Positions 8,841 to 32,322 of a stretch of 32,322 nt of DNA are shown here, in pieces. The stretch comes from an uncultured Thermomicrobiales bacterium (GTDB lineage Bacteria; Chloroflexota; Chloroflexia; Thermomicrobiales; UBA6265), in assembly GCA_902806375.1 (NCBI GenBank), contig CADCWK010000123.1, positions 1 to 32,322 on the forward strand, written 5' to 3'. The notes under the pieces are model-generated. The model made no database searches. It had not been told where the DNA came from and saw nothing but the letters and a program-made list of their open reading frames with translations. How positions within the stretch are numbered: position 1 is the first letter of the stretch; each line of letters begins with the position of its first letter. The position numbers and the translations under genes are program-made.

Positions 8841-10229
8841 ATGTCCCTTTCACGACGCACGATCATCAAGGGTGCCGCCGGCACCGCCACCGCTGGGGCG
8901 ATCGCCCTCAACGGCAAGGCCAGCTCGGTCTTCGCCGCCCCGAACATCATCCGGCGGCAGGCACCGGTCGAACTCAACTTCTGGTACGGCTTCACCGGGG
9001 TCCTCGGGGACCGGATGGCCGACCTGATCAACCGCTTCAACGAGACCAACGGTCAGGGCATCACCGTCACCGGGCTGGCGCAGGCCAACTACGGCGAGAC
9101 GGCCCAGAATCTGACCCTGTCTCTCCAGGACGGCACCAATCCCGACATGGCGCTGCTCGCGGAGATCTGGTGGTTCCGCTTCTACCTGGCGCAGCAGCTT
9201 CTGCCACTCAACGACCTGATCAGCGCCCGTAGCTTCCCGATCGATGACGTCGTCGACTCCTTCCGGTATGAGGGCGTCCGCAAGGGGACACAGTACTGGC
9301 TGCCCCTCGCTCGCTCGACCCCGCTGGTCTACTACAACACCGACATGTGGTCGGCGGCCGGCTACGACACCTTCCCCGCCACCTGGAGCGAGGTCGCGGC
9401 CGCCGCTCCGAGCTTGAACAACGAGGACCAGCAGGTCGTCGCCTTCGCCCTTCCGCCCGCGACCGATTACCTCTCCTGGCCGTTCCACGGTGTCGTCTGG
9501 GCCCACGGCGGCGCCTACAGTGACGACGACTTCACGATCCGGATCACCGAGCCGGGTGCCGTCGCGGCCGGCGAACTCTACCGGCGCGGCATCCAGGAAG
9601 GCTGGATGTACAACGCCGACAGCCAGGTCAACGACTTCTCCAGCGGCTTCGCGGCCATGATGATTGGTTCGACCGGGACCCTCGCCGAGATGCGGACCCT
9701 GACGGCGGAGACCGGCATCAAGTGGAACACGGCGTTCCTGCCGGGTGAGGTCCCGGGCATCAATGAGACGTGCCCAACCGGCGGCGCCGGCGTCAGCATC
9801 ATGGCCAACATCCCGCCCGAGCGACAGGAAGCGGCCTTCACCTTCATCGAGTTCTTCTCGTCCTACCCGGAGGTCATCGCTTGGGCGCAGGGCACCGGTT
9901 ACATGCCGACCCTGAAGTCCGCGATCGCCGGGCCGGAGATGGAGGAGTTCTTCGTCGCCAACCCGACGTCCCGCACCGCCGTCGATCAACTCGCCACCCG
10001 GACCAAGCCCCAGGACGTCGCCCGGGCCTATATCCCCGGTGGCGACCAGATCATCAGTGAGGGGATCTCCGAGATCCTGATCAACGGGACCGAGTCTCAG
10101 GTCGTATTCCAGGCCGTCGCGGAACGGCTGACTGCGGAGGCCGCTACGGTCGTCGAGCAGGTCATCGCGCTCGAAGGCGACCTGACCTCAGGTGTCGCCA
10201 CCCCGCCGGCCGCCACGCCGACCGCGTAA
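8841..10229 (+). CDS. ABC transporter substrate-binding protein, family 1, UgpB-like, Tat signal (paralog 1)
   Basis: Twin-arginine signal MSLSRRTIIKGAAG...VFA/AP with no lipobox Cys. UgpB-like blocks RSTPLVYYN and WAQGTGYMPT. SD AGAGGAG lies 8 nt upstream. P/A/T-rich C-terminal tail. Confidence 0.9.
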   Translation: MSLSRRTIIKGAAGTATAGAIALNGKASSVFAAPNIIRRQAPVELNFWYGFTGVLGDRMADLINRFNETNGQGITVTGLAQANYGETAQNLTLSLQDGTNPDMALLAEIWWFRFYLAQQLLPLNDLISARSFPIDDVVDSFRYEGVRKGTQYWLPLARSTPLVYYNTDMWSAAGYDTFPATWSEVAAAAPSLNNEDQQVVAFALPPATDYLSWPFHGVVWAHGGAYSDDDFTIRITEPGAVAAGELYRRGIQEGWMYNADSQVNDFSSGFAAMMIGSTGTLAEMRTLTAETGIKWNTAFLPGEVPGINETCPTGGAGVSIMANIPPERQEAAFTFIEFFSSYPEVIAWAQGTGYMPTLKSAIAGPEMEEFFVANPTSRTAVDQLATRTKPQDVARAYIPGGDQIISEGISEILINGTESQVVFQAVAERLTAEAATVVEQVIALEGDLTSGVATPPAATPTA

Positions 10230-10264
10230 CCAGCGTCCAAGGTCCTACACCAGCGAGCGACAGC

Positions 10265-10298
10265 AGAGCGCCGGACCCCGACTGGGGTCCGGCGCTCT
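10265..10298 (+). terminator. Hairpin terminator after SBP paralog 1
   Basis: Perfect 15-bp stem AGAGCGCCGGACCCC / GGGGTCCGGCGCTCT with loop GACT, 36 nt after the stop. There is no U-tract, which is common in high-GC genomes. Confidence 0.6.
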
Positions 10299-10456
10299 CG
10301 CGTCCCAGTCAAGTCTTCATCCGCCCGACGAACGTTTTCCCGGTGTTGACGTCTCCCTAACACTGGGCTGCCCCGCGTCGCGCATCATCCAGGAAGTCGC
10401 TCACCATCGTCCCAGTCGGTCGCCACGGGCGCGTGCCCCTATCACGGAGTAACTCG

Positions 10457-11863
10457 ATGGTCCTCTCACGTCGTTCCGTCATCGCCAGCGCCGCGGGTCT
10501 CGGTGCCGCCACCCTCGCCAGCCGCCCGGCCATCACCGCCCCGAAGGTGATCCGCCAGACCGGCTCCGACACCGAGATCAGCTTCTGGCATGGTTTCACC
10601 GGCGCCCGAGGCGAGACGCTGCAGGCACTGGTCGATGGCTTCAACGCCCTCGACACCGGCGTCCAGGTCACGGCCCTTCCCTACGGCTCGTATGAGGAGG
10701 TCGCCGAGAACCTCGTCCGCGCCCTCGGGGACGGCACCGCTCCGGACCTCGTCGCGATGAGCGAGGCGCTCTGGTTCCGCTTCTACCTCTCCGGGTCGAT
10801 CCTGCCGCTCGACGACCTGATCGCCTCGACCGGCTTCGACCTCGAGGACATCATCCCGGCCTTCCGGGCGGAGGGCCAGCGGGCCGGCCAGACGCTCTGG
10901 CTGCCGTTCTCGCGCAGCACCCCGCTGGTCTATTACAACCGCGACCTGTTGCGTGCCGCCGGTCTGGACGCCTTCCCTGCCTCATGGGCGGAGTTCGCGG
11001 ACGTCGCGCCGAGCCTGACAAACACCGACACGCAGGTCTACGCCATCGCCCAGTCCACCATTGCCAACCTCGTCGCCTGGGCCTTCCAGGGCGTGACGTG
11101 GGCCTATGGCGGCGCGTACAGCGACGGCGAGCTCAACATCCTGATCGACGAGCCGGGCGCCGTCGCGGCGGGCGACTTCTACCTTCGCTCAATCGAGGAG
11201 GGCTGGGGCTACGCCTCGCCGCAGGGCAACCAGGACCTTGGCAACGGCTTCGCGGCCGCGACCATCGCCAGCACCGGCGTCCTGAACGACACCTCCGCCC
11301 TGGCCGAGGCGACCGGCTTCGAACTCGGGACGGCCTTCCTGCCCAGCGCCGAACCGGGCGGCCCGACCGCCTGCCCGACTGGCGGCTCCGGTCTGTTCGT
11401 CGTCGGCAGCGCCCCCGCCGAGCGACAGGCGGCCGCCTTCGCCTTCCTCACCTACTGCCTCTCGACCGAGACGACGACGACCTGGGCGCAGAGCACCGGC
11501 TACATGCCCGTCCGGACCTCGGCGATCGAGAGCCCGGCGATGCTGGACTTCTTCGCCGCCAACCCGAACTTCCGGACTGCCGTCGACCAGCTCCCGGTCG
11601 CCCGCGCCTCCGACACGGCCCGGACGTGGGTCCCGGGCGGCGACGCGATCATCGCGACGGGCATCACCCGCATCCTCGTCGAGAGCGCCGACCCGCAGGA
11701 GGTCTTCAGCGAGGTCGCCAGCCAGCTCGAGGTCGAGGCCCAGCCTGTCCGCGACCAGATCATCGCCCTCGAGGGCAACCTGACGACCCAGGGCACCCCG
11801 GGGGCCATCCCCGCTGCGACCCCGGCGGCCACGCCCGCCGCGACCCCGGTCGCCGCGCGGTAA
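10457..11863 (+). CDS. ABC transporter substrate-binding protein, UgpB-like, Tat signal (paralog 2)
   Basis: MVLSRRSVIASAAGLGAATLA Tat signal, with GGAG 8 nt upstream of ATG 10457. Same conserved blocks as paralog 1 (RSTPLVYYN, WAQSTGYMPV). C-terminal (P-A-A-T)3 repeat tail. Confidence 0.9.
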   Translation: MVLSRRSVIASAAGLGAATLASRPAITAPKVIRQTGSDTEISFWHGFTGARGETLQALVDGFNALDTGVQVTALPYGSYEEVAENLVRALGDGTAPDLVAMSEALWFRFYLSGSILPLDDLIASTGFDLEDIIPAFRAEGQRAGQTLWLPFSRSTPLVYYNRDLLRAAGLDAFPASWAEFADVAPSLTNTDTQVYAIAQSTIANLVAWAFQGVTWAYGGAYSDGELNILIDEPGAVAAGDFYLRSIEEGWGYASPQGNQDLGNGFAAATIASTGVLNDTSALAEATGFELGTAFLPSAEPGGPTACPTGGSGLFVVGSAPAERQAAAFAFLTYCLSTETTTTWAQSTGYMPVRTSAIESPAMLDFFAANPNFRTAVDQLPVARASDTARTWVPGGDAIIATGITRILVESADPQEVFSEVASQLEVEAQPVRDQIIALEGNLTTQGTPGAIPAATPAATPAATPVAAR

Positions 11864-11900
11864 CGCGGTAATCCGGACCGGTCGAATCGCATCACGTTCA

Positions 11901-11930
11901 CGGGGCAGCCTGGCGATGCAGGCTGCCCCG
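11901..11930 (+). terminator. Hairpin terminator after SBP paralog 2
   Basis: Perfect 12-bp stem CGGGGCAGCCTG / CAGGCTGCCCCG with a 6-nt loop, 38 nt after the stop. Confidence 0.55.
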
Positions 11931-11982
11931 TCACGCGTACCGACCGGGGACCCCAAGGGCAGGACGCCCGAGACCGGCCACG

Positions 11983-12048
11983 GTGGACACCGGGACGACC
12001 GGCACCCCGGCCGCGACGCCAGCCGCCACCCCGGTCGCCGCCCGCTGA
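11983..12048 (+). pseudogene. Relic 3' end of a further SBP paralog (encodes ...TGTPAATPAATPVAAR-stop)
   Basis: The frame-1 reading ends GTPAATPAATPVAAR*, duplicating the C-terminal tail of paralog 2. The last 27 nt differ from paralog 2 only at third-codon positions and the stop codon. No SBP body lies upstream. It is followed by its own hairpin. Confidence 0.4.
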
Positions 12049-12060
12049 CCTCGTCCTCCG

Positions 12061-12100
12061 GCGCGACGCCGGCCACCAGGCACGGCGTCCGGCGTCGCGC
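12061..12100 (+). terminator. Hairpin following the SBP-tail relic
   Basis: Perfect 12-bp stem GCGCGACGCCGG / CCGGCGTCGCGC with a 16-nt loop, followed by ATTT. Confidence 0.4.
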
Positions 12101-12594
12101 ATTTCCACTCCGGCCCCCACGTGAGCCGGTTCGATCGCCCCGTGGACTCTCCCGGGTCCGGGTCGTCAGGGGACGGTGCCGCGCCCGCGACACCGGTCGA
12201 TGACGCCCCCAGCATTGACCATCTCCGGGCTGCATCCGTCCGGTCATCGGCAGGGCAGCCAGCGGGCCGAGGTGGAGTCCGCGGTGGCCAATAACTTGCT
12301 CACGGCAACTACTGGCACTGCTTCACTGTCCAGCCGGTGTACCGAATCCGTCACCGCCGCGTCTCAACGCCCAGCGGGTGAAGCTGCGGCCGTCCGGTGG
12401 TGGACAAGGTCACCGGAACGGAAGGTGACCAGCATCTGGTCGTCGTCCCGACGCGACGGTTGGAGCCGGGCTCTCCAGGAAACAGGCCGGGGCTTGTCGC
12501 CTGGAGAGCCCGGTCGGTCCCCGTGCGTCACGACCTGAGCGTCCGCCTAAGCACGACCCCTGGCGTCCGTGCAACCGATCGAGGGAGTCCAGCG

Positions 12595-13992
12595 ATGACC
12601 ATCTCCACGAGTCGACGTTCGATATTGAAGGGCGGCGCAGCTGCCGCCATCGGGGGATCGGCGCTCGCGAGCAAGCACAGCAAGGTGTTCGCGGCGCCAA
12701 ACATCATCAGCCAGACTGGTTCGAACGTAGAGATCAACTTCTGGTACGGGCTGGGCGGCGCCCTGGGCGAGCGGATCCAGGAACTGATCGCGGAGTTCAA
12801 CGCGCTGGGTACCGGTGTCACGGTGACGGGCCTCCAGCAGACCAGTTACGACGAGACCGGCCAGAACCTGACCCTGGCGTTGCAGGACCAGACGTTCCCG
12901 GACGTCGTCCTGCTCTCCGAGGTCTGGTGGTTCCGCTTCTATCTCGCCAACGCGTTACTCCCGATGGACGAACTGATCGCTTCCACGGGCTACGACATCG
13001 ACGACGTCGTCGATTCGCTCCGGGCCGAGGGCCACCGCGCCGGTCAGCACTGGTGGCTGCCGGTCGCCCGCAGCACCCCCCTGATGTACTACAACAAGAC
13101 CATGTACGAAGCGGCGGGGATCACCGAACCGGCTGCGACCTGGAGCCAGTTGCGCGAGTACGGCCCTGCCCTCTCCGACGCCGGTAGCCAGACGTACGGG
13201 CTCGGGTTCTACCAGACCACCGGTGACATCTCCTGGCACTTCCACGGAGCGACATGGGCGTTCGGCGGGAACTACAGCACGCCGGACTTCACCCCGACGC
13301 TCGACCAGGGGGGAGCGATCGACGCCGGCGAGCTGTGGCGCTCGTCCGTCGCCGATGGCTGGGCAACGCTCAGCCAGGACCAGGAGCAGGACTTCGTCAA
13401 CAACTTCATCGCGACAGGATTCTTCTCGACAGGCCTGCTCACCAGCCTGACAACCCAGGCCGAGGAGAACGGCTTCGAACTCGGCACGGCATTCCTGCCC
13501 GGAGAACGACCCGATATCACAGCGACGTGCCCGACGGGTGGTTCCGGTCTCGCCCTCCTGAACAGCGGGAACGCCGAGCGACAGGCGGCCGCGTTCTCGT
13601 TCTTCGCCTACTGGTCATCACCGGAGCGGACGGCCGCCTGGTCGCAGGCGACCGGCTACATGCCCGTGCGGAAGTCGGCCATCGCCGGCCCGGTCATCCA
13701 GCAACTGTTCACCGAGAAGCCGAACTACAAGGTGGCGGTCGACCAGCTGCAGACCCGGACCCAGCCGCAGGACGTCATCCGCCGCCTCGTCCCGCCGGGA
13801 GCCAACATCATCGGTGAGGCGATCAACGACATCCTGATCAATCAGACCCCAACGGCCGAGGCGTTCGCAGTCGCCAACCAACGACTGAGCGACGAGGCGG
13901 CGGGGGTCGTCGAGCAGATCATCGCCAGGGAGGGTGACCTCACCAGCGGGGCGACTGTCCCGGATCTCCCCGCGGCAACCCCCGCCAGCTGA
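12595..13992 (+). CDS. ABC transporter substrate-binding protein, UgpB-like, Tat signal (paralog 3)
   Basis: MTISTSRRSILKGGAAAAIGGSALA Tat signal, with GAGGGAG SD at 12581..12587. Blocks RSTPLMYYN and WSQATGYMPV. The 66-aa upstream part of the ORF is rejected as non-coding. Confidence 0.9.
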   Translation: MTISTSRRSILKGGAAAAIGGSALASKHSKVFAAPNIISQTGSNVEINFWYGLGGALGERIQELIAEFNALGTGVTVTGLQQTSYDETGQNLTLALQDQTFPDVVLLSEVWWFRFYLANALLPMDELIASTGYDIDDVVDSLRAEGHRAGQHWWLPVARSTPLMYYNKTMYEAAGITEPAATWSQLREYGPALSDAGSQTYGLGFYQTTGDISWHFHGATWAFGGNYSTPDFTPTLDQGGAIDAGELWRSSVADGWATLSQDQEQDFVNNFIATGFFSTGLLTSLTTQAEENGFELGTAFLPGERPDITATCPTGGSGLALLNSGNAERQAAAFSFFAYWSSPERTAAWSQATGYMPVRKSAIAGPVIQQLFTEKPNYKVAVDQLQTRTQPQDVIRRLVPPGANIIGEAINDILINQTPTAEAFAVANQRLSDEAAGVVEQIIAREGDLTSGATVPDLPAATPAS

Positions 13993-22810: not shown

Positions 22811-23048
22811 GCGAACGCAGGGCCGCAGCGGATGGGTCAGTCCATTCCCGGACCCCAGCGACGGGGACCCGACCGGTTACCCGCCGTCGCCACCGTTCTG
22901 GTCCGGACCGTGGTGGGAGTAGCCGACGAGCCGGACCGGACGATCACGTCCGGCTGGTCGTCCGGAACGCCAGGGGGTTGGTACCCTACGCACAGGACCA
23001 GGTGGCGAGCGCCGTCGACGTCGACCCGAGCGGGTAGTGGGTGATCAG

Positions 23049-23747
23049 ATGTTTCGTCGACAGCGGGACCAGGAACGACAGGACCGGGTCGTCGTCATCG
23101 GTCTCGGCCGGTTCGGCACCAGCACCGCTCGGACCCTGGCCTCCCTGGGCTATGAAGTGCTAGGCATCGACATCGATGAACGGCCGGTCACCGAGGCGTC
23201 CGATTTCGTGACGCTGGCCGCCCAGGGCGATGGTACAGATGAGGAGTTGCTCCGCTCCCTGCACGTCGAGGAGTCGGACGTCGGGATCGTCGCCCAAGGG
23301 GAGAACCTCGCCGCGAGTGTCCTCGCGACGATGGTGCTCAAACAGATCGGCGTCCCATGGGTGATCTCTAAGGCAGCCAACAAGCTGCACGGCGATGTCC
23401 TGACCCGGATTGGCGCCGACCGGGTAATCTTTCCAGAAGCGGACGCAGGAATTCGTCTCGGGCACTCCCTGGCCGTCCGGACCATCAACGACTACATCAC
23501 GCTCACGCCAACGGCCGGCCTGGCGAAGATGCATGCACCGCAACATTTCATCGGCCGCTCGCTGGCTGACCTCTACAACACGCCCGATCTCGCCCTGAGC
23601 GTCCTCCTGATTCGCCGCAAAGACCAGTTGATCACGGCACCGTCGTATACCGAGCAGATTGAAGCCGACGACGAGATCGTCGTCGCTGGGACCGACGCCG
23701 CCATCAACCGCTTCAGCACCATCGGCCAGCACCCCAAAGGATCGTGA
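23049..23747 (+). CDS. ktrA: K+ uptake system regulatory subunit, RCK_N plus RCK_C (KtrA/TrkA-type)
   Basis: Rossmann motif VVVIGLGRFGTSTARTL. The length of about 230 aa is typical of KtrA. It is followed by and coupled to a TrkH/KtrB gene. GTG 23037 is an alternative start. Confidence 0.9.
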   Translation: MFRRQRDQERQDRVVVIGLGRFGTSTARTLASLGYEVLGIDIDERPVTEASDFVTLAAQGDGTDEELLRSLHVEESDVGIVAQGENLAASVLATMVLKQIGVPWVISKAANKLHGDVLTRIGADRVIFPEADAGIRLGHSLAVRTINDYITLTPTAGLAKMHAPQHFIGRSLADLYNTPDLALSVLLIRRKDQLITAPSYTEQIEADDEIVVAGTDAAINRFSTIGQHPKGS

Positions 23748-25261
23748 CGACCCCGAATGATCCCGTATTCCCTGCGCTTGGACGAGAACGGCAAACGGGT
23801 AATCGGATGACACCGAGTTCCGGTCCTGAGGCCCGGAGGCCCGGTCGGGCGGTGATCCGGCGCCGCGCCCGCTCGACCAAGGTTATCGACTGTCCTCCAC
23901 CGGTAAAGCGACCGTCGGCCGCGAATCCGCTGGCCCACGCGCGACTGTTTGCATTGGCGCTGACGGTCTTTATCTGTATCGGCACCATCCTCCTAATGAC
24001 ACCCTGGGCCACCGCGCCAGGCCAGCAGACCAATTTTTACGACGCCCTCTTCACCTCAATGTCCGCGTCGACCATCACGGGTCTGGCGACGGTCGATACC
24101 GCGACGCACTGGACGTTCTTCGGCGAACTCGTCATCCTCATTCTCGTCCAGATAGGTGGCCTGGGCTTCATGGTCGGCGCCAGCTTGGTCCTCCAGCTCC
24201 TGCGCCGGGGTGATAGTTTGCGCGATGCCATGCTGATGCGGGACGGGGCCCCGACGCTGACTCTGCGGGAAGCCCTCGAGTTCTCTGGCCGCATCATTCG
24301 TTTCACCTTCGCCGTCGAAGCGGTCGGCGCAAGCCTTTTGACAGGGCACTTCTGGCTTATTGCCGGACAGGCCTTCCCCACCGCCCTCTGGAACGGTGTG
24401 TTCCACGCCATCTGTGCCTTCTGTAACGGTGGCTTCGACCTCAGCACGAACTTTGGGTCGTTCATCGCCTACGACGACTCGATCCTGCTCAACGTCGTGA
24501 TCGCGGCGCTGATCCAGACCGGTTCGCTGTCGTACATCGTCTTCCACGATCTCTGGGTCCGGCGCAGATGGAACACGCTCTCGCTCGACACCAAGCTCGT
24601 GCTAGTAGTGAACGGTGTCCTGCTCGTGGCCGGGGCTGTCATCTTCCTGGTCCTCGAGTGGAATGCATCGCTCCAGGACACTCCCACCTGGGCTCGTCCC
24701 ATGGCGTCCGTCTTCCAGAGTGTGGCGGCCCGGTCCGGCGGCTACGCCACCGTGGACTTTGCCAGCGTCACGACGGTGACTCTGCTGATCTGGCTCGGAA
24801 TCATGGCGATCGGCGGGGCGTCCGGCTCAACCGCGGGCGGGATCAAGCTCACGACGACCGGTGTGGTCTCGGTGGCGGTCCTGTCCGCACTCCGGGGTCA
24901 TACGGAATCCCAGGTCTTTGGTCGCCGGATTGCATCGGCGCTCGTGTTTCGCTCGATGGGGATCATCGCCCTGTTCATGATGCTGTACTTCTTCGTCACG
25001 ATCTCGCTCGCCATCACCGAGTCCTCGATCCTTGGCGAGCGGTTCACCACCGCGGCGCTGCTCTTCGAATCAATGAGCGCACTGGCGACGACCGGACTCT
25101 CGACCGGGCTCTCGGCGGAGGTCTCCAATGCAGGCAAGGTCATCCTAGCCCTCGCGATGTTCATCGGGCGGATCGGACCACTCTCGTTCGCCTACGCGCT
25201 CCAGGGCCGCCAGCGCCCGCCGCGCTACCGGTACTCCGAGGAGCCCGTCAGGATCGGGTAG
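23744..25261 (+). CDS. ktrB: TrkH/KtrB-family K+ transporter membrane subunit
   Basis: Repeated membrane-pore-membrane units with selectivity-filter-like Gly motifs (QIGGLGF, NGGFD, RSGGYAT, ATTGLSTG). GTGA overlap with the ktrA stop. ATG 23807 is an alternative start. Confidence 0.9.
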   Translation: MTTPNDPVFPALGRERQTGNRMTPSSGPEARRPGRAVIRRRARSTKVIDCPPPVKRPSAANPLAHARLFALALTVFICIGTILLMTPWATAPGQQTNFYDALFTSMSASTITGLATVDTATHWTFFGELVILILVQIGGLGFMVGASLVLQLLRRGDSLRDAMLMRDGAPTLTLREALEFSGRIIRFTFAVEAVGASLLTGHFWLIAGQAFPTALWNGVFHAICAFCNGGFDLSTNFGSFIAYDDSILLNVVIAALIQTGSLSYIVFHDLWVRRRWNTLSLDTKLVLVVNGVLLVAGAVIFLVLEWNASLQDTPTWARPMASVFQSVAARSGGYATVDFASVTTVTLLIWLGIMAIGGASGSTAGGIKLTTTGVVSVAVLSALRGHTESQVFGRRIASALVFRSMGIIALFMMLYFFVTISLAITESSILGERFTTAALLFESMSALATTGLSTGLSAEVSNAGKVILALAMFIGRIGPLSFAYALQGRQRPPRYRYSEEPVRIG

Positions 25262-25316: not shown

Positions 25317-26636
25317 TCACCCGGACCGCGCCAGCACCGGGCTGACCGGCACGGGCACCCGGCGGCGCTCCGCCATCGCGACCGCCACCGTCGCCAGCAC
25401 GGCCGTCGCGGCGAGCATCCCGAAGACGGGGACGTAGCCGCCGGCCAGCCCGTAGGCGATCCCGGCACCGACCGGCGCCGACGCGCGGGAGAGGGTGGTG
25501 AACAGGGAGATCGTGCCGGAGATCTCCCCGTACGCCCGACGGCCGAAGAAGTCCGCCACCAGGGTGGCCCGCGTCAGCGTCAGGGCCCCGGTGCTGGCGC
25601 CGAACAGGACGATGAACAGCACCACGCCGGCTGGCCAGCTCCCGAGGGTGACCAGCGCGACGACCGCGACGGCCTGCCCGCCGAAGACGATGACCGTCAT
25701 CCGGCTCCTCGGGATGAACCGGCCAGCCCCGGTCATCACGACCCGGCCGGTGACGGAAAACAGCCCGTAGGCACCGGCCACCAGCGCGGCGAAGGTGCCC
25801 GGGTGACCCTGCTCCGTCAGGTAGGCGAGCAGGTGGACCGTGACGGCAACGGACGTCAGGGTGCTGAGGACGAAGGCGGAGACGAGCCACCAGAAGGCGG
25901 GCTCGCGCATCGCCGACCGGGCGTCGTGACCGGCAACAGCCTGAGGAGCGACGGCATCCGCCGCCACGTCCGTGCTGTCCACCGGCGGGTCGACCGGGGA
26001 CCCGTCGGGCCGGAGCCCGAGATCCTCGGGTCGCCGCCGTAGGACGAGCAGGTGCGGCCCGATCGTCCCGGCGGCGAGGATGACGGCCAGGACGACCAGC
26101 GCGTCCCGCCAGCCGAGCGACCGGGCGAGCAGGTCGGTCAGCGGCAGGAAGACCGTACTGGCCAGCCCCCCGGCCACCGTCAGCGCCAGCAGCGCCCGGC
26201 CCCGGAGCCGGTCGAACCAGGTCGTCAGGACCGCGAAGGCCGGCTCGTAGAACACCGCCGACATCGCCAGGCCGATGACGACCCAGACGGCGAAGTAGCC
26301 GGGGATCGTCTCGACGCGCGACCAGGCCAGCACCGCCAGCGTCGCGACGACCGAGCCGGTCGTCATCAGCAGCCGGGCACCGTGCCGATCCAGCCAGCGG
26401 CCGACCAGCGGCGCGACCAGCCCGGAGACGAGCAGCGCAACCGAGAACCCGCCCGCCAGGACGGTCAGCGACCAGCCCAGTTCGGCCTGCATCGGGACGA
26501 GCAGGGCCGCGAAGGCGTAGTACAGCACGCCGAACGAGATCAGCTCGGTGACCGCGAGCGTCCCGACGATCGACCACCCGTAGTAGCGGCGGGAACGGAT
26601 CGCTGCCAGCTGGTCCAGCGTGGACTCCCTTCCCAT
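25317..26636 (-). CDS. MFS transporter (OFA-like), last gene of the merR-arsR-flavoprotein unit
   Basis: About 12 hydrophobic helices and N-terminal RRYYGWSIVGTLAVTELISFGVLYYAF. It starts 22 nt after the flavoprotein stop. Confidence 0.88.
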   Translation of the reverse strand: MGRESTLDQLAAIRSRRYYGWSIVGTLAVTELISFGVLYYAFAALLVPMQAELGWSLTVLAGGFSVALLVSGLVAPLVGRWLDRHGARLLMTTGSVVATLAVLAWSRVETIPGYFAVWVVIGLAMSAVFYEPAFAVLTTWFDRLRGRALLALTVAGGLASTVFLPLTDLLARSLGWRDALVVLAVILAAGTIGPHLLVLRRRPEDLGLRPDGSPVDPPVDSTDVAADAVAPQAVAGHDARSAMREPAFWWLVSAFVLSTLTSVAVTVHLLAYLTEQGHPGTFAALVAGAYGLFSVTGRVVMTGAGRFIPRSRMTVIVFGGQAVAVVALVTLGSWPAGVVLFIVLFGASTGALTLTRATLVADFFGRRAYGEISGTISLFTTLSRASAPVGAGIAYGLAGGYVPVFGMLAATAVLATVAVAMAERRRVPVPVSPVLARSG

Positions 26637-26658
26637 CGGTCCGTCTCGTCCGTCAGGC

Positions 26659-28098
26659 CTAACGCGGCGCGCCGAGCTGGATCAGTTGTGGGGCAGCTGG
26701 GGTGCAGCAGGCCGCCGCCGTTGCCGGGACGCCAGGCTCCAGCGTGATGACCTGCGGCGTCCCGCCGCCACAGCAGGCGGCCGCACCGGTCGCGGCGGCG
26801 ACCTCATCGACGGTCGCGCCGCAGCACGATGAGGCCGGCGCATCGAACAGGTTGGTCGAGCAGACCCCGGTCTCGGGCAGGACCAGCCGGACGTCGCGGG
26901 CGGCCACCCAGTCCCCGGCGATGGCGGCGGCGACCGACCGGACCTGCTCGTAGCCGGTCAGCATCAGGAAGGTCGGCGCCCGCCCGTAGCTCTTCATCCC
27001 CACGACATAGACATCGGCCTCGGGGTGGCGCAGCTCCTCGGCGCCGTGCGGCGGGACACTGCCGCAGCTGTGCAGGTTGGGGTCGATCAGCGGCGCCAGC
27101 GCGACCGGGCTCTCGACGATCGGGTCGAGCGCGATGCGCAACTCCGACAGGAGCGAGAGGTCCGGCCGGAACCCGGTCGCGACGATAATCTCGTCGACCG
27201 GCGGGAGTGCGGCCTGATCCCCCGAGACGACGACCCCATCGGGGCTGGGGTCGATCCGGGTGGCCCTGAAGTCGCTGACCAGATCGAGACTGCCGGCATC
27301 GACCATCGCCCGGACCTGCACCCCGAGCAGCCCGCGCGCCGGCAGGCCGTCGGCGTCCCCGCCGCCGAACAGCGACGCCAGCCGCTGGGCCGGACGCCGG
27401 ACCGCCCAGGTGATCGCCGTCCCCGGCACCTCGTCGGCCAGCCGGCCGAGGTCGAGCAGCGCGTTGAAGGCCGAGTGCCCGTTGCCGATGACCAGCACGC
27501 GCCGGCCCGCGTAGCGATCCCGGTCGGCGCCGAGGAGGTCCGGGATGCCGTAGACGATCCGGTCGGCGGCGTCGGCCTCACCGGGCACCGCCCGCCCCGA
27601 CGCACCCAGCGGGTTCGGGGAGCGGATCGTCCCCGACGCGTCGATGACGGCCCGCACGCGGACGGTCTCCGTCACGCCGCCGGCCGACTCGACCGTGAGG
27701 AGGAACGGCGCGTCGTCCCGACCAGCCGACTTCATCTTGTCGAAGCCGTCCCGGGCCACGCCCTCGACCCGGACACCGAGCCGGATGCGGTCTCGCAGGG
27801 CGGGCAACGCCGCCAGGGGTGTCAGGTACCGATCGACCAGGTCACGTCCCGTCGGGAAGCCCTCCGGGTCGGGCGCCGACCAGCCCGACGCGGCCAGCAG
27901 GTCCGCCGCGGCGTCATCGACGACGTAGCGCCAGGGCGAGAACAGGCGGACGTGCCCCCACGTCAGGACCCCGGCGCCGACCGTCTCACCCTGCTCGAAC
28001 ACGACCGGCTCCTCGCCCTGCGCGAGCAGCCGGGCCGCGGCCGCGAGACCGACCGGCCCGGCACCGATGACCGCGACCGGGAGGCTGGGGTTAGCCAT
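26659..28098 (-). CDS. FAD/NAD(P)-binding flavoprotein (ArsO/FMO-like oxidoreductase) with Cys-rich C-terminal tail
   Basis: N-terminal dinucleotide fold VAVIGAGPVGLAAA and a second fold VLVIGNGHSAFNALLDL. The C-terminal 67 aa carry 7 Cys, including three CC pairs. GAGGA SD upstream of ATG 28098. Confidence 0.85.
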   Translation of the reverse strand: MANPSLPVAVIGAGPVGLAAAARLLAQGEEPVVFEQGETVGAGVLTWGHVRLFSPWRYVVDDAAADLLAASGWSAPDPEGFPTGRDLVDRYLTPLAALPALRDRIRLGVRVEGVARDGFDKMKSAGRDDAPFLLTVESAGGVTETVRVRAVIDASGTIRSPNPLGASGRAVPGEADAADRIVYGIPDLLGADRDRYAGRRVLVIGNGHSAFNALLDLGRLADEVPGTAITWAVRRPAQRLASLFGGGDADGLPARGLLGVQVRAMVDAGSLDLVSDFRATRIDPSPDGVVVSGDQAALPPVDEIIVATGFRPDLSLLSELRIALDPIVESPVALAPLIDPNLHSCGSVPPHGAEELRHPEADVYVVGMKSYGRAPTFLMLTGYEQVRSVAAAIAGDWVAARDVRLVLPETGVCSTNLFDAPASSCCGATVDEVAAATGAAACCGGGTPQVITLEPGVPATAAACCTPAAPQLIQLGAPR

Positions 28099-28128
28099 GA
28101 ACGTCCTCACTGTCTGCTAGACGGCTGG

Positions 28129-28146
28129 ATCGACCGATGTCGATAT
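28129..28146. promoter_or_regulatory. Operator-like inverted repeat ATCGAC-CGAT-GTCGAT upstream of the flavoprotein gene
   Basis: Perfect 6-4-6 palindrome in the 88-nt arsR-flavoprotein spacer. Near-identical to the copy at 28588..28605. Confidence 0.5.
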
Positions 28147-28186
28147 TTCTGGCGGAGAACTGACCCTGACGGGCTAACTACCGGAG

Positions 28187-28555
28187 TCAGGTCGCCATGA
28201 TCTGGCGCGCGGCTTCGGGGAAGGCGGACAGGCAGGCCCGGTTGACCCGGTAGTACATGAACGTGCCCCGGCGCTCGGCGAAGACGAACCGGGCATCGCG
28301 CAGGACGCGCAGGTGATGGGAGATCGCCGGCTGGCCGAGCGGGAACTGGTCGACGATGTCGCAGACGCAGATCGCGTCCTCGTTCCTCGCGAGGAGGTTC
28401 AAGATCCGGATCCGGGTCGGATCACCGAGGGCCTTGAACCAGGCGGCGAACTCCCCCGCCTGCGCATCCGACAGGACGGGGGCAAGGACCGACCCGGGGC
28501 AACCGGTTCCCGTCGAAATCCGCTCGACTGGCGATGCCGTGACCATGCTCCTCAT
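28187..28555 (-). CDS. arsR: ArsR/SmtB-family metalloregulatory repressor
   Basis: Winged HTH LGDPTRIRILNLL...CVCDIV...ISHHLRVLRDA. The CVC motif sits at the position of the ArsR(R773) As(III)-binding ELCVCDL. The ATGA overlap with the merR-like stop supports the start at 28555. Confidence 0.88.
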   Translation of the reverse strand: MRSMVTASPVERISTGTGCPGSVLAPVLSDAQAGEFAAWFKALGDPTRIRILNLLARNEDAICVCDIVDQFPLGQPAISHHLRVLRDARFVFAERRGTFMYYRVNRACLSAFPEAARQIMAT

Positions 28556-29013
28556 CCTCTCTCCTCGACGCCTACCCTATGGCATTCATCGACCGATGTC
28601 AATATATGAGCTGGCCCGTCGCTTACCCGATGCTCCCAGCCGTGGTGTGCACAGGCGTCGAGGGTGAGACAGTCGCACCGGAGACTCTCCTCCAGGACCC
28701 GGCGAACGGTCTGCATCCGGCTGATCAGCGCGTCGACTTCGGGGAGCTTGCGCCCGGCCATCTCCTGCCATCGCCTGGATGGCGGTGTCCCGTCCGGGAA
28801 ACCGCCGAGCAGTGTCCGGATCTCATCGAGGCGGAACCCGGCCTCCTGGGCCATCCGGACGAGCGCGATCCGGGTCAGCACGTCGCCGTCATAGCGACGC
28901 TGTCCACTGACACGTCTGGGAGACTCGAGGAGACCAACTTGCTCGTAGTATCGGATCGCTGAGGGTCGCAGTCCCGTGCGCCGCGCCACCTCGCCCACCG
29001 TCAACCCATCCAT
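28552..29013 (-). CDS. MerR-family transcriptional regulator with C-terminal C-x-C-x5-C cluster
   Basis: HTH LTVGEVARRTGLRPSAIRYYEQVGLL. C-terminal LRCDCLTLDACAHH resembles three of the four SoxR cluster cysteines. GGAGGG SD upstream of ATG 29013. The upstream 131 aa of the track ORF are antisense to the divergent gene and are rejected. Confidence 0.85.
   Translation of the reverse strand: MDGLTVGEVARRTGLRPSAIRYYEQVGLLESPRRVSGQRRYDGDVLTRIALVRMAQEAGFRLDEIRTLLGGFPDGTPPSRRWQEMAGRKLPEVDALISRMQTVRRVLEESLRCDCLTLDACAHHGWEHRVSDGPAHILTSVDECHRVGVEERG
28574..28605 (-). promoter_or_regulatory. Candidate arsR promoter (TTGACA-17-TAGGGT) overlapped by the operator repeat ATCGAC-CGAT-GTCAAT
   Basis: On the minus strand, TTGACA (28602..28597), a 17-nt spacer, then TAGGGT (28579..28574). 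This lies 19 nt upstream of the arsR ATG. The operator copy spans 28588..28605. Confidence 0.5.
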
Positions 29014-29035
29014 CCCCTGCCCTCCATCGACCCTC

Positions 29036-29066
29036 TTGACTTGAAGTCCGGTTGAAGTCGTAGTCT
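29036..29066 (+). promoter_or_regulatory. MerR-type promoter with 19-bp spacer driving the divergent 3-Cys gene
   Basis: TTGACT (29036..29041), a 19-nt spacer, then TAGTCT (29061..29066). The region contains the palindrome GACTTgAAGTC and a direct repeat of TTGAAGTC at an 11-nt period. Confidence 0.5.
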
Positions 29067-29115
29067 CGCGATGGTACTGGTTCCGATTCCACCGAGCACG
29101 GAAAGACAAGGGCAC

Positions 29116-29514
29116 ATGGACGATAACGGTCGAACGGGCGAGTTTGCCGCCGAGCTCGCGATCAAACGTATTCACGACGACCGATCGCCCCAGAGCGCGA
29201 CGAACGCGCTCCCCATCGCGTGCAGTCTCGATGACCGCGAGCTTGCCCTCCGATCTGAGACGGTCCGTCGCGACCTCTTCGCCCTGGCCGAGGATCGGCG
29301 CGAACTCCCCGATGGGTACGCGTTTCGGTTCGTAGGGAGCGACGACATCATGGCGAAGGTCAACGCCTTCGTCGCGACCGAGCGCCGCTGCTGTTCGTTC
29401 TTTCACATCGAAGTGGCGTTCGAGCCGGGTCTGGGACCGATCTGGCTACGCCTGACCGGTCCGGAGGGGGTGAAGCGATTCGTCGACGAGACGTTCGATC
29501 CCGGCGTCTTGTGA
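29116..29514 (+). CDS. Hypothetical 132-aa protein with a C...CC cysteine triad
   Basis: GC3 rises after ATG 29116, whereas the first 15 codons from ATG 29071 are GC3-poor. Conserved-looking IACSLDD and ERRCCSFFHIEV. I recognise no family. Confidence 0.6.
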   Translation: MDDNGRTGEFAAELAIKRIHDDRSPQSATNALPIACSLDDRELALRSETVRRDLFALAEDRRELPDGYAFRFVGSDDIMAKVNAFVATERRCCSFFHIEVAFEPGLGPIWLRLTGPEGVKRFVDETFDPGVL

Positions 29515-29546
29515 CTCTCTGAGTCGCGATGAAGCGGGCGCCGAAC

Positions 29547-29582
29547 CGGGTCGGGCTGAGGCCATCGAACCTCCCCGACCCG
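29547..29582. terminator. Hairpin between the convergent 3-Cys gene and orf126
   Basis: CGGGTCGGG / CCCGACCCG 9-bp stem with an 18-nt loop. Confidence 0.3.
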
Positions 29583-29633
29583 CGGACGGCAGCCCGGATG
29601 TATCAGGGGTTGGGACAAGCATGCCGGGCAGGT

Positions 29634-30014
29634 TCAGCCAGCGCCCGCAGCCTGGCACGACGGGACGGCCTCGTCCCGACCATTGGCGCCACCGGGCAGA
29701 TCGGCGAACAGCGCCGGGTCGGGCAGCGTGCCGTCCAGCCGGTCCCAGTTGCGGTCGGTGATCTCGGCGCTGTACTTGTCGGGGATGTAGTGGCGGTGGG
29801 CCATCGTCTGGAGCCCGAGGTGCATCAGCTGCCGCCCGTAGGGGATGTGGCGCAGGACGTTGGCGACGTGGATGTGGCGCTGGTGCGTGAAGCCGGGCAG
29901 CTCCCCGGCCAGGAACAGCCGGATCACGTTGGCGTAGCGGCGCTCCACCGTCAGCGACTCGATCGACCGCTTGGGCTTGCCACTGCGACTGAACTGGACC
30001 TCGACCTCAGACAT
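29634..30014 (-). CDS. Hypothetical His-rich 126-aa protein, last gene of the acr3 unit
   Basis: Very high GC3 throughout. GGGAG SD. The ATG overlaps the upstream metallophosphoesterase gene by 8 nt. Contains FTHQRHIHVANVLRHIPYG...MAHRHY. I recognise no family. Confidence 0.65.
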   Translation of the reverse strand: MSEVEVQFSRSGKPKRSIESLTVERRYANVIRLFLAGELPGFTHQRHIHVANVLRHIPYGRQLMHLGLQTMAHRHYIPDKYSAEITDRNWDRLDGTLPDPALFADLPGGANGRDEAVPSCQAAGAG

Positions 30015-30744
30015 GGGCTCCCGCCGTCTCCAGATCGCGGGCGTAGTGGTCCGGCAGCCCGTCGGCCTGCCGGATCGCCTCCGCCATCGCGTCGATATCG
30101 TAGTCCACCCGGTGGTACGTCACCCCGGGCTCCTGCCCGGCGGCAAGTGTCAGCAGGACCCAGCAGGCGCGTGGGTCGCCGTCCTTCGGCTTGCCAGCGC
30201 TCCCGGCGTTGACGAACAGGACATCGCCGACGTGCCGGGACCACGGGATGTGGGTGTGGCCGAAGACCAGGACGTCGCAGTCCGCGCTGGCGGCGATCCG
30301 TTCGAGCGACCGCTGGTCCCGGTCCGCGAACAGGTACTCGTTCATCCGGCGCGGGCTGCCATGCACCATCCGGACCCGGACTCCCTCGACGTCCAGGCGA
30401 ACCTCCGGGAGCAGTCCCTGCAGGTACGCCTTGCGGTCTGGGTCGACCACGCCGCGTGACCACTTCAGCGATCGCTGGCCGCGCTCGCGCTCACCGTCAT
30501 CCTTGTAGGCGCAACCACAGTCGTCCCGGTCGTAACCGACGCCGTCGTCGTAGTTGCCGATGACGGTCGGGATCGCCCGCGCGCGGACCAGGTCGATCGT
30601 CTCGTTGGGCCGCGCACCGTAGCCAACGAGATCGCCCAGGCAGTAGACGGCGTCCGGCGCCGCGACGTCGATGGCGTCCAGCGTCCGGGCCGTCGCGTCG
30701 CTGTTGCCGTGAACGTCACCGAAGATGGCGATCCGGGTCACCAT
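30007..30744 (-). CDS. Metallophosphoesterase (YfcE/MJ0936-like, Metallophos_2)
   Basis: Motifs IFGDVHGN, CLGDLVGYG, GNYDD and VFGHTH. It starts 3 nt after the stop of the small Cys-rich ORF. Confidence 0.9.
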   Translation of the reverse strand: MVTRIAIFGDVHGNSDATARTLDAIDVAAPDAVYCLGDLVGYGARPNETIDLVRARAIPTVIGNYDDGVGYDRDDCGCAYKDDGERERGQRSLKWSRGVVDPDRKAYLQGLLPEVRLDVEGVRVRMVHGSPRRMNEYLFADRDQRSLERIAASADCDVLVFGHTHIPWSRHVGDVLFVNAGSAGKPKDGDPRACWVLLTLAAGQEPGVTYHRVDYDIDAMAEAIRQADGLPDHYARDLETAGAHV

Positions 30745-30747
30745 GGC

Positions 30748-30990
30748 TCAGCAGGCCCCGCAGTCGCACGAGCCGGCCCGGATGCAGCAGAGGACGTGCC
30801 GGATCGCCAGCAACGGCACGAAGCCGCCAACCGTGCCCGTGGAGAGCGCCGTGACCGCGTTGGTGACACACGATTCCAGACCGGGAAACGACGCGCCATC
30901 GATTTCGACGAGAGCCGCCTGCCGGACCCGGTCGATCATCGACCGGCCGGCATCATCGGTCTGCTCAAAGGACGTTTCTGATCCATACAT
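30748..30990 (-). CDS. Small Cys-rich hypothetical protein (ends LCCIRAGSCDCGAC)
   Basis: High GC3 from the internal ATG (MIDRV...) onward. It lies 67 nt downstream of acr3 and is coupled to the phosphoesterase gene. The start is either 30990 or the ATG at 30939. Confidence 0.55.
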   Translation of the reverse strand: MYGSETSFEQTDDAGRSMIDRVRQAALVEIDGASFPGLESCVTNAVTALSTGTVGGFVPLLAIRHVLCCIRAGSCDCGAC

Positions 30991-31057
30991 GGCGATGGGA
31001 CCCTTTCAGGGGCTGGCACCCTCCAACGGGAGCCGCCTGGGCGTCAGTTCTGGCCCC

Positions 31058-32197
31058 CTATGTCAGACGCCGGCCGGCCGACGTGACGGGGATGACGGGC
31101 TCCGTCCCCGCGTCGGCAGGGAACAGCCGATCGCGGAGCCAGAGCGAGAGGTAGACGAGGGCGATCAGGGCCGGGACCTCGATCAGCGGCCCGACCACTC
31201 CAGCCAGTGCCTCGCCCGAGGTGATCCCGAAGACGCCGACCGCGACCGCGATCGCCAGCTCGAAGTTGTTGCCGGCCGCCGTGAAGGACAGCGCCGCGGT
31301 CTGCGGGTAGTCGAAGCCCAGCCGGTGGGAGACGACGAAGGCGAGCCCGAACATGATGACGAAGTAGACCAGGAGCGGGGCGGCGATCCGGAGCACGTCG
31401 AGTGGCAGCTCGATGATGCGGTCGCCCTGGAGCGAGAACATGATCACGATCGTGTAGAGCAGCCCGAGCAGCGCCGTCGGGCCTAGTCGCGGCATGAACC
31501 GGTTGTCGTACCAGTCGGCGCCCTTGCGGGGCCGCAGGATGCGCCGTGTCAGGAACCCGGCCACGAGCGGGATACCGAGGAAGATCAGCACGTTCCTGGC
31601 AATCGTCCAGATCGAGATGTCGACCGCCGACGACTCCGCGCCGAACCAGCCCGGCACGACCGTCAGGAGCAGCCAGCCGAAGACGCTGTACATCAGGATC
31701 TGGAAGACCGAATTGACCGCGACCAGCACGGCGGCCGTGTCGCCGTCGCCGCGGGCCAGCATGTTCCAGATCAGCACCATCGCGATGCAGCGGGCGATGC
31801 CGATCAGGATCAGCCCGTTGCGGTACTCGGGCTGGTCGGGCAGGAACAGCCAGGCCAGCCCGAACATCAGCAGGGGGCCGATCACCCAGTTGAAGACCAT
31901 GGAGGTCGCGAACAGTTTGCCCTGCGACTGGAACCGGCCGAGCGACTCGTAGCTGACCCGCGCCAGCACCGGGTACATCATCCAGAGCAGGCCGAGGGCG
32001 ATCGGCAGCGACACCCCGGCCACCTGGACGGCGTCGATCCGCTCACCCAGATCCGGAACGATCTGGCCGAGCAGGATCCCGAGACCCATCGCCGCGAAGA
32101 TCCAGACGGGCAGGAAGCGGTCGATCAGCGACAGCGTGGGCGGGCCGGCGCCCTCGCCGGCGATCGCCGGGGCAGCCTGGGGGGCGTGCGCCTGCAT
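31058..32197 (-). CDS. acr3: Arsenite/antimonite efflux transporter ACR3 (BART superfamily)
   Basis: LSLIDRFLPVWIFAAMGLGILLG, the ACR3-diagnostic IGIARCIAMVLIWN (conserved Cys) and ELAIAVAVGVFG. Ten hydrophobic helices. Confidence 0.93.
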   Translation of the reverse strand: MQAHAPQAAPAIAGEGAGPPTLSLIDRFLPVWIFAAMGLGILLGQIVPDLGERIDAVQVAGVSLPIALGLLWMMYPVLARVSYESLGRFQSQGKLFATSMVFNWVIGPLLMFGLAWLFLPDQPEYRNGLILIGIARCIAMVLIWNMLARGDGDTAAVLVAVNSVFQILMYSVFGWLLLTVVPGWFGAESSAVDISIWTIARNVLIFLGIPLVAGFLTRRILRPRKGADWYDNRFMPRLGPTALLGLLYTIVIMFSLQGDRIIELPLDVLRIAAPLLVYFVIMFGLAFVVSHRLGFDYPQTAALSFTAAGNNFELAIAVAVGVFGITSGEALAGVVGPLIEVPALIALVYLSLWLRDRLFPADAGTEPVIPVTSAGRRLT

Positions 32198-32281
32198 CCT
32201 ATCCGCCCCTCCCGGTGCGAACGATGTCCGCTGAGTCCGTGGCCGCCCTGGTCCTCATCGTGGTGCGCCTCCCGGCTCCTT

Positions 32282-32301
32282 GATATCGACGGCGATCTAT
32301 C
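32282..32301. promoter_or_regulatory. Weaker third copy of the operator-like motif upstream of acr3
   Basis: GATATCGACGGCGATCTATC shares the ATCGAC half-site, and 12 of 18 positions, with the 28129 and 28588 sites. It lies 85-104 nt upstream of the acr3 ATG. Confidence 0.25.
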
Positions 32302-32322
32302 TGTGCGACCAAAAAAAGCGTC

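Follow-up and report, generated by a model that had tools for sequence, protein, structure and literature searches.

The DNA considered here, referred to as the window, comprises all 32,322 bp of contig CADCWK010000123.1 (assembly GCA_902806375.1) of an uncultured Thermomicrobiales bacterium from the Chloroflexota. Between positions 25317 and 32322 it carries what we read, with a probability of about 0.75, as a composite resistance cluster for arsenic, and probably also for antimony and organoarsenicals, in which four known kinds of component are accompanied by accessory genes. Because the window is the complete contig, any genes past acr3 are outside view. An earlier reading made from the letters alone (hereafter the sequence-only reading) had described a metalloid-resistance island in this region; all nine open reading frames (ORFs) and every cysteine motif that it named are present, and the island itself stands, with ACR3 and ArsR both passing curated cutoffs.

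The same reading had proposed an undescribed pathway, and in this it went too far. The core consists of ACR3, ArsR, a reductase resembling Car1, the flavoprotein ArsV and a transporter of the major facilitator superfamily (MFS) resembling ArsK. The pathway as a whole is not undescribed; three small proteins and a MerR module alone remain so. What is new is the combination of genes, the operon in which merR leads arsR, arsV and the MFS gene, the conserved but unannotated orf126, a domain with three cysteines (3-Cys) and orf80. The further suggestion that organoarsenicals are handled is a sensible one. Families described between 2018 and 2024 (ArsK, ArsV and the Car1-type reductase) thus explain most of a seemingly non-canonical ars island in an uncultured member of the Chloroflexota.

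ACR3 and ArsR

The acr3 gene (31058-32197, minus strand) encodes an ACR3-family arsenite efflux permease that scores 424.8 bits against the equivalog model TIGR00832, whose cutoff is 282.8, and matches Pfam SBF at 7.4e-53. Its translation carries the cysteine of the R-C-I-A-M-V motif, within IARCIAMV (GIARCIAMVLIW), and is 91-92% identical to the acr3 products found at the same place in two related loci, L001 and L002. An exact look-up of the product returned no match.

The repressor gene arsR (28187-28555, minus strand; HTH_5 at 6.5e-16) encodes an ArsR/SmtB protein that scores 58.4 bits against PF01022 (HTH_5; cutoff 22) and 90.6 against NF033788 (cutoff 55). The C-V-C metalloid site lies in the DNA-binding region, within NEDAICVCDIV (AICVCD). 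This protein is 66-70% identical to the ArsRs encoded immediately 5' of arsV in L007 and L038.

Together with the gene that follows acr3, these components recall the canonical arsR-acr3-arsC operons, which have the same CVC-type ArsR, the ACR3 pump and a reductase gene 3' of the pump. The window differs in that a protein of phosphoesterase fold replaces the ArsC of low-molecular-weight phosphatase (LMWP) or glutaredoxin (Grx) type, and in that neither arsA nor arsD is found in the cluster. Searches with tblastn detected no canonical ArsC of either type, no ArsH and no ArsM anywhere on the contig. Five ArsC queries were used (two LMWP-type, one Grx-type from locus L077, and two annotated ArsC proteins from Rubrobacter), three of which gave no match at E<0.2 and two none at E<=1.

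The phosphoesterase as a candidate arsenate reductase

Downstream of acr3, in the position usually held by arsC, lies a gene for a metallophosphoesterase (MPE; 30007-30744, minus strand; Metallophos_2 at 1.6e-24), as the sequence-only reading had pointed out. The product belongs to the YfcE subfamily and has a calcineurin-like fold (PF12850, 87.1 bits); its nearest solved structure is PDB 3rqz (2.6e-20). Two features set it apart from an ordinary phosphoesterase. It carries the pair C76-G-C78, and GNY replaces the catalytic GNH motif. In an alignment, C76 and C78 fall in register with C74-G-C76 of the enzyme encoded in a plasmid-borne arsR-MPE-arsM arrangement of Paraclostridium bifermentans.

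The significance of this pair comes from Car1, an As(V) reductase of Rufibacter tibetensis derived from a metallophosphoesterase (Shen et al. 2024, Mol Microbiol 122:201, as cited in PMC12124457). According to the citing paper, the MPE genes in ars operons of Paraclostridium share about 40% identity with Car1 and keep the essential Cys74 and Cys76. The Paraclostridium protein aligned here is a close relative of the one called Orf1 in PMC12124457. The CGC segment is kept in every ars-linked MPE inspected (L001, L002, L003, L038, L085, L017, Hymenobacter and Rubrobacter); a non-ars MPE (L025) lacks it, and 3rqz has a deletion at this place. These ars-linked proteins also agree in carrying GNY at the site of the ordinary GNH.

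The best homologs from cultured organisms, 42-45% identical, belong to the Hymenobacteraceae, the family of Rufibacter, and to the Sphingobacteriaceae (Mucilaginibacter, Pedobacter). Those inspected in Hymenobacter and Adhaeribacter belong to ars operons that include acr3, and the MPE homologs of Mucilaginibacter and Pedobacter have acr3 as their direct neighbour; uncharacterised MPE genes 3' of acr3 have been noted in Mucilaginibacter (PMC10652896). No Rufibacter record appeared among the plasmid matches to the MPE.

The window protein therefore resembles Car1 in its calcineurin-like phosphoesterase fold, in its CxC pair at the equivalent position and in its place beside acr3 in an ars operon. 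The comparison with Car1 runs through homologs, to which the window MPE is roughly 35-45% identical. It also has its own surroundings, being flanked by orf80 and by the overlapping orf126, neither of which occurs in the Bacteroidota or Clostridia operons. Since the MPE has the Car1-type C-x-C pair and GNY, an arsenate reductase is probably present, and the claim of the sequence-only reading that the cluster lacks one is probably wrong; the MPE itself is probably that reductase. Chloroflexota, Rubrobacter, Clostridia and Gemmatimonadales all have homologs in which this CxC pair is found, a spread that suggests that Car1-type reductases extend well past the Bacteroidota. Surveys of arsenic cycling based on arsC would count genomes of this kind as free of a reductase.

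Two related loci deserve separate mention. At L086 7272-7907 the Car1-like MPE is split into three short ORFs, by decay to a pseudogene or by an assembly error, and the orf126 homolog 3' of it is intact. The Bacteroidota form of the MPE ars operon, on a Hymenobacter sublimis plasmid (L087, 4466-7931), carries DUF6428, a GNAT gene (ArsN-like) and DUF5990, and adjoins a cluster of merTP and a GDCCVxC selenoprotein gene; these add further families to the list of ars-linked genes that lack an explanation.

The flavoprotein and the MFS transporter

The flavoprotein gene (26659-28110, minus strand; Pyr_redox_3) encodes 483 amino acids. It had been taken for an FMO- (flavin monooxygenase) or ArsO-like protein, and ArsO is ruled out by score (45.2 bits against NF040505, cutoff 425). 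Over about 440 aa the protein shares 52% identity with the product of a 428-aa gene of Achromobacter xylosoxidans (L077), which lies immediately 3' of a gene for a MarR with C36, C37 and C157. In Achromobacter sp. As-55, arsV is directly 3' of MarR_ars, and ArsV alone gives E. coli resistance to trivalent methylarsenical [MAs(III)] and trivalent roxarsone [Rox(III)] (bioRxiv 10.1101/2021.08.12.456183). Because its MarR neighbour matches this published arrangement, the L077 gene serves as a stand-in for arsV, and the window flavoprotein, an NAD(P)H- and FAD-dependent monooxygenase by prediction, is assigned to the ArsV family.

The two proteins share a family, two dinucleotide-binding motifs and FMO-like relatives. 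In the family alignment, GAGPVG (16-21) and GxGHSA (209-214) are invariant, and HSCGSVPPHG and PETGVCS are invariant or nearly so. The nearest solved relatives found by sequence in the PDB are mainly flavin monooxygenases, and the one match to a thioredoxin reductase is confined to the N-terminal FAD-binding motif. The C-terminal tail differs, with three CC pairs in the window protein (26659-26830) and a single one in the short tail of the Achromobacter ortholog; three to four such pairs are conserved in the aligned long-tailed members of the family. ArsO, from the Streptomyces arsRBOCT cluster, is likewise a class B-like flavoprotein encoded among ars genes, yet it belongs to another family, has about 350 rather than 483 aa and lacks a CC tail. 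Locus L077 has both arsV and an ArsO-like gene.

The flavoprotein family is large, with more than 8,000 database clusters, the best 120 of which all show 61% identity or more; GTDB species genomes contain at least 598 stretches that match it. Gene context was counted at 80 GTDB species loci out of these stretches, spread over Chloroflexota, Acidobacteriota, Proteobacteria, Actinomycetota and Bacillota, among others. Of the 76 loci that could be tested for an arsR immediately 5' of the flavoprotein gene, 23 have one; an MFS gene lies immediately 3' in 32 of 74. Two of the latter encode proteins that pass the ArsK cutoff of 400, with 550.7 bits in Mesorhizobium sp. ZC-5 (L054) and 453.5 in Rhizobium sp. 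FKL33 (L067).

The MFS gene of the window (25317-26636, minus strand; MFS_1 at 2.5e-35) occupies the same position. Its best NCBIfam family is NF033733 (MFS_ArsK), at 161.1 bits against the cutoff of 400, and because of this score we call it ArsK-like by position and not an equivalog. An arsRVK operon is reportedly carried by Ensifer adhaerens ST2. Judged by gene order, the ArsR, flavoprotein and MFS genes of the window reproduce the arsR-arsV-arsK layout, with the regulator 5' and the ArsK-type transporter 3'. They depart from it in three ways: the MFS protein diverges from the ArsK equivalog, merR has been joined into the operon ahead of arsR, and in this lineage the module is linked to acr3-orf80-MPE-orf126.

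orf126

The most conserved protein of the cluster is encoded by orf126 (29634-30014, minus strand), which overlaps the stop of the MPE gene by 8 nt. It has no Pfam or NCBIfam match. The family counts 341 clusters; 33 aligned homologs from Chloroflexota and Gemmatimonadota are 62-89% identical to the window protein, and identities among the 120 matches listed run from 66 to 100%. GKPxR, H44, R46, H47, H65, R74, K80, Y81, W90 and DLP are invariant, and the GGA that comes next is nearly so. The window protein has 8 histidines. An AlphaFold2 (AF2) model is confidently all-alpha, with a predicted local distance difference test (pLDDT) score of 86, and Foldseek found no significant PDB match to the fold (best E = 2.2).

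Gene context was compared across 15 distinct arrangements, the window included, and orf126 lies inside an ars cluster in all 15. In ten of them (window, L001, L002, L003, L038, L085, L086, L093, L100 and L102) it is directly 3' of a Car1-like MPE gene, mostly overlapping it. In three (L004, L005, L083) it is directly 5' of, and overlaps, a gene for an LMWP-type ArsC, and in the other two (L095, L105) it lies between arsR or acr3 and arsV. Translational coupling to an arsenate reductase, of one fold or the other, is thus its usual arrangement. From this placement, orf126 is probably a bona fide ars gene and a partner in the arsenate-reduction step. It may bring arsenate to the reductase or hold it in place, or link the enzyme with its electron donor, and it may serve reductases of two unrelated folds, the Car1-type MPE and the LMWP ArsC. 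Of the three unannotated families of the cluster, all of which are linked to ars genes strongly enough for direct testing, it has the best claim to being a new ars gene.

One ancestral cluster

The sequence-only reading had divided the region into two separate units, A and B. Comparison with relatives shows instead that these belong together as the halves of a single conserved cluster. The genes of L001 and L002 run contiguously as arsR-acr3-orf80-MPE-orf123-arsV-MFS, co-directional and largely overlapping, and are followed by TrkH-TrkA. Locus L093 repeats this string, adds another arsR before the flavoprotein gene, and again has TrkH-TrkA next. The window arrangement equals that of L093 plus a divergent merR/3-Cys pair. 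This comparison marks the pair as an insertion into an ancestral single cluster.

Other relatives vary the theme. L100 has arsR-acr3-MPE-orf-arsR-flavoprotein-MFS and lacks orf80, and L003 is rearranged to arsR-flavoprotein-acr3-orf80-MPE-orf. In L085 (arsR-arsM-acr3-orf81-MPE-orf125) and L102 (acr3-MPE-orf112) there is no flavoprotein or MFS gene in the locus, so that only the half with acr3, MPE and orf126 is present. The unassigned genes are enriched beside ars genes in other genomes, as the sequence-only reading had anticipated.

The merR gene, a putative promoter and the 3-Cys protein

The inserted pair consists of merR (28552-29013, minus strand; MerR_1 at 3.3e-17) and the divergent gene for the 3-Cys protein (29116-29514, plus strand). 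As the first gene of merR-arsR-arsV-MFS, merR is joined to arsR by an overlap of its TGA with the arsR ATG (ATGA). Its product is SoxR-like, with three cysteines. It scores 98.5 bits against the SoxR model TIGR01950 (cutoff 116.9) and keeps the last three SoxR cysteines, as CxCx5C (C-D-C-L-T-L-D-A-C); the first cysteine of the [2Fe-2S] motif CX2CXCX5C is missing. The score and this cysteine pattern together rule out SoxR itself. The mercury regulator MerR, CueR and ZntR were likewise rejected (63.8 against a cutoff of 150.9, 67.3 against 147.4 and 47.1 against 168, respectively). The MerRs encoded divergently from 3-Cys genes in Paenibacillus and Peribacillus are 36-40% identical to the window protein and have CxCL[ST]xxxC in common with it.

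Between the two genes, facing the 3-Cys gene, an element read by eye at 29036-29066 (plus strand) has TTGACT at 29036-29041 and TAGTCT at 29061-29066. The 19-bp spacer holds two TTGAAGTC direct repeats and a GACTTGAAGTC palindrome. At the level of consensus the element would be a MerR-type promoter, as the sequence-only reading had proposed for this divergent interval. An automatic scan for sigma-70 promoters found nothing, because it allowed only spacers of 16-18 bp. The window regulator shares with SoxR and other MerR-family activators the helix-turn-helix (HTH), the dimerisation helix, a C-terminal cysteine cluster, a divergent target and a 19-bp spacer. It differs in having three of the four cluster cysteines of SoxR, and in that its recurrent partner is the 3-Cys domain; in Rhodococcus the two are joined in one protein.

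The 3-Cys protein (132 aa) has no Pfam or NCBIfam match. Its family comprises 2,479 representative clusters at E <= 1e-3, and C36, C92 and C93 are invariant in an alignment of 48 diverse members. The AF2 model is an alpha/beta fold with a pLDDT of 84, to which Foldseek found no PDB match; a sequence search of the PDB gave only a chance match (E = 0.47). The best match to the family, P0253 (7,147 aa, 40 matching stretches), was set aside as a compositional artefact and not a relative because it is a cysteine-free repeat protein lacking the CC motif.

About 10 loci were examined for the genomic context of this family. The homolog in Adhaeribacter lies directly after acr3, in an arsR-arsN2-arsM-MPE-acr3 operon. 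In Rhodococcus the domain is the C-terminal part of a MerR protein whose gene adjoins one for an SBF transporter, and in Paenibacillus and Peribacillus the 3-Cys gene is divergent from merR. Haladaptatus and Halogeometricum have it next to a gene for an SBF transporter and divergent from an HTH gene. The Halomarina gene also adjoins an SBF transporter gene, the nearest HTH gene being about 1.7 kb away. The best reading of these contexts is that MerR and the 3-Cys protein form a conserved module for sensing or binding soft metals or metalloids, and the pair may control or serve exporters of the SBF/ACR3 type. Its coupling to arsR-arsV-MFS is specific to this lineage. Should the sensor prove real, it would be the first MerR-family activator responsive to As(III) or Sb(III). 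The joint proposal that orf126 is a new ars gene and that MerR(CxCx5C) and the 3-Cys protein are a widespread two-part soft-metalloid sensor/chaperone module is rather unlikely to hold in both its parts, and is put forward tentatively.

Several further features of this family were recorded. The 3-Cys domain occurs fused to rhodanese (at either end), DinB/MDMPI, SnoaL and HTH_17 domains (for example P0256, P0258, P0307 and P0320), and these fusions suggest a wider role in thiol or persulfide chemistry, beyond the binding of metalloids. On two Firmicutes plasmids, membrane peptides of 78-83 aa are encoded between the MerR and 3-Cys genes (L096 2747-2998, L098 2702-2938); with their transmembrane motif CALCCALP and a tail rich in cysteine, they resemble the MerF/MerT importers of Hg(II). 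A small membrane protein of the YnfA family accompanies the 3-Cys gene or its merR in Adhaeribacter (L090 6316-6645) and Paenibacillus (L096 1933-2259).

orf80 and the cysteine motifs

The third accessory gene, orf80 (30748-30990, minus strand), encodes a small protein of a small family, with 12 clusters at >=63% identity in a database of 5.8 billion proteins and no Pfam or NCBIfam match. Homologs 39-51% identical were found by tblastn in L003, L004 and L005. The gene is always directly 3' of acr3 or of a gene for a MIP channel and 5' of the MPE gene or orf126. The conserved core is FVPLLA[IL]R.V..CI..G.C, in which the only cysteines kept are those of C-I-x-x-G-x-C. The window protein ends in CC-x5-C-x-C-x2-C, a tail that is complete in close relatives only. 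No similarity was found to the small CC membrane peptides of the Firmicutes MerR/3-Cys loci, nor to the DUF6428 and DUF5990 proteins of Hymenobacter ars operons. Its position argues that orf80 encodes a conserved, ars-linked accessory protein, and a role in metalloid binding is weakly suggested.

The sequence-only reading had argued that several unrelated proteins of the region carry vicinal cysteines suited to metalloid binding. The argument holds for the CC pairs of the ArsV tail and for the 3-Cys triad, which is conserved throughout its family. It fails for the CxCxxC tail of orf80, lost in distant homologs, and it gains nothing from orf126, which has no conserved cysteine in the 33-homolog alignment. 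The likeness to ArsD goes as far as cysteine pairs or triads fit for S3 coordination of As(III) or Sb(III), in products of ars-operon genes. The Cys-rich proteins of the window have no sequence relationship to ArsD and no ArsA partner, and neither Pfam nor NCBIfam found an ArsD domain on orf80, the 3-Cys protein or the ArsV tail.

Alternative readings

Several points weigh against the composite reading. The MFS protein falls far under the ArsK cutoff (161 against 400), and orf126 has no adjoining reductase in two of its 15 arrangements (L095, L105). Mer genes are also found next to the MerR/3-Cys module, as is a MerF-like CC membrane peptide. The MPE is only 42-45% identical to its Hymenobacteraceae homologs, and its link to Car1 passes through a statement in PMC12124457 about a Paraclostridium homolog to which it is 35.6% identical. 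It is conceivable that the MPE is a true phosphoesterase or arsenoesterase, acting on ADP-arsenate or arseno-sugar phosphates, or an enzyme of nucleotide signalling, with ArsC encoded elsewhere in the genome. The protein does score as a YfcE-family phosphodiesterase and keeps most of the metal-ligand motifs (GDVHGN, GDLVGYG, GHTH), and a 32-kb contig leaves room for an ArsC gene elsewhere. Yet the motif-III histidine is replaced by tyrosine in every ars-linked MPE, the CGC insert is conserved only there, no other reductase is found in the window cluster or its relatives, and one member of the group is, according to PMC12124457, an As(V) reductase that depends on exactly these cysteines. The homologs in Rubrobacter and Deinococcus sp. 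QL22 adjoin a canonical ArsC, so that the two need not exclude each other, a point in favour of the phosphoesterase reading. On balance we consider a plain phosphoesterase improbable. Still more improbable is a scheme in which the reductase step recruits the flavoprotein, as an ArsT-like disulfide or thiol reductase whose CC tail feeds electrons to the CxC reductase through orf126 as adaptor, so that MPE, orf126 and flavoprotein would form a self-contained arsenate reductase system. Gene overlaps lend themselves to it: in L001, L002 and L095 there are 4 nt common to the orf126 homolog and the start of the flavoprotein gene, and the MPE gene overlaps the orf126 homolog by 8 nt in L001 and L002. 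So do the annotation of the family by JGI as thioredoxin reductase and the invariant cysteine of HSCGSVPPHG, together with the CC pairs. At most of the 80 GTDB loci, however, the flavoprotein gene keeps company with arsR and an MFS gene in the absence of MPE or orf126; the solved relatives are mainly flavin monooxygenases, the family lacks the CxxC of thioredoxin reductases, and the Achromobacter ortholog confers MAs(III) and Rox(III) resistance on E. coli by itself.

A more serious competitor concerns the merR/3-Cys insert, which could be a module for mercury or another soft metal that merely landed in the ars cluster and has no arsenic function. We would give this appreciable weight, though clearly less than an even chance. 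In Peribacillus a Tn3-type element carries the same pair next to merR1-merA, a small membrane peptide with a CC pair like that of MerF/MerT belongs to it in two Firmicutes, and the sister loci L001, L002 and L093 lack it. Against this reading stand the translational coupling of merR to arsR-arsV-MFS through ATGA, the Adhaeribacter homolog placed in-operon after ACR3, and the recurrence of SBF/ACR3-type transporters as neighbours of 3-Cys genes in Rhodococcus, Peribacillus and haloarchaea. The occurrence beside mer genes and with a MerF-like peptide does mean that Hg(II) may act as the inducer, in addition to As(III) or Sb(III) or in their place.

A proposed scheme for the cluster

From the family assignments, motifs, synteny and co-occurrence recorded above, we infer activities, substrates and regulation along the following lines. 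Arsenate would be reduced to As(III) by the C76-x-C78 pair of the MPE, in the manner of Car1 and possibly with the help of orf126, and ACR3 would export the resulting As(III). With NAD(P)H and O2, ArsV would oxidise Sb(III) and trivalent organoarsenicals such as MAs(III) and Rox(III); the substrate is probably captured by the CC-rich tail, and the ArsK-like MFS protein probably exports trivalent species. The CVC-type ArsR would derepress arsV-MFS on binding a trivalent metalloid. A second ArsR is expected just past the contig end, 5' of acr3, as in relatives, so that ArsRs would gate both halves of the cluster. The inserted MerR (CxCx5C), co-transcribed with arsR-arsV-MFS by this scheme, probably activates the divergent 3-Cys gene from the promoter with the 19-bp spacer, and the 3-Cys product probably binds a soft metal or metalloid through its invariant cysteine triad.

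Flanking genes

No further ars genes were found elsewhere on the contig, the rest of which holds sugar-ABC and housekeeping genes, and an Rfam scan of the window was empty. At 6644-13992 (plus strand), two ABC permease genes are followed by three successive genes for extracellular solute-binding proteins (SBP_bac_8, SBP_bac_1). Potassium-uptake genes TrkA-TrkH (23037-25261, plus strand) lie convergent to the cluster, 3' of the MFS gene, and are found there in L001, L002, L093 and L095 as well. On the 5' side of the ars cluster, SulP-STAS genes are common to the relatives, as is DUF305 except in L095, and a P-type ATPase with HMA domains is encoded in L001, L002 and L095. These shared flanks mark a stable chromosomal neighbourhood of metal homeostasis and not a mobile island.

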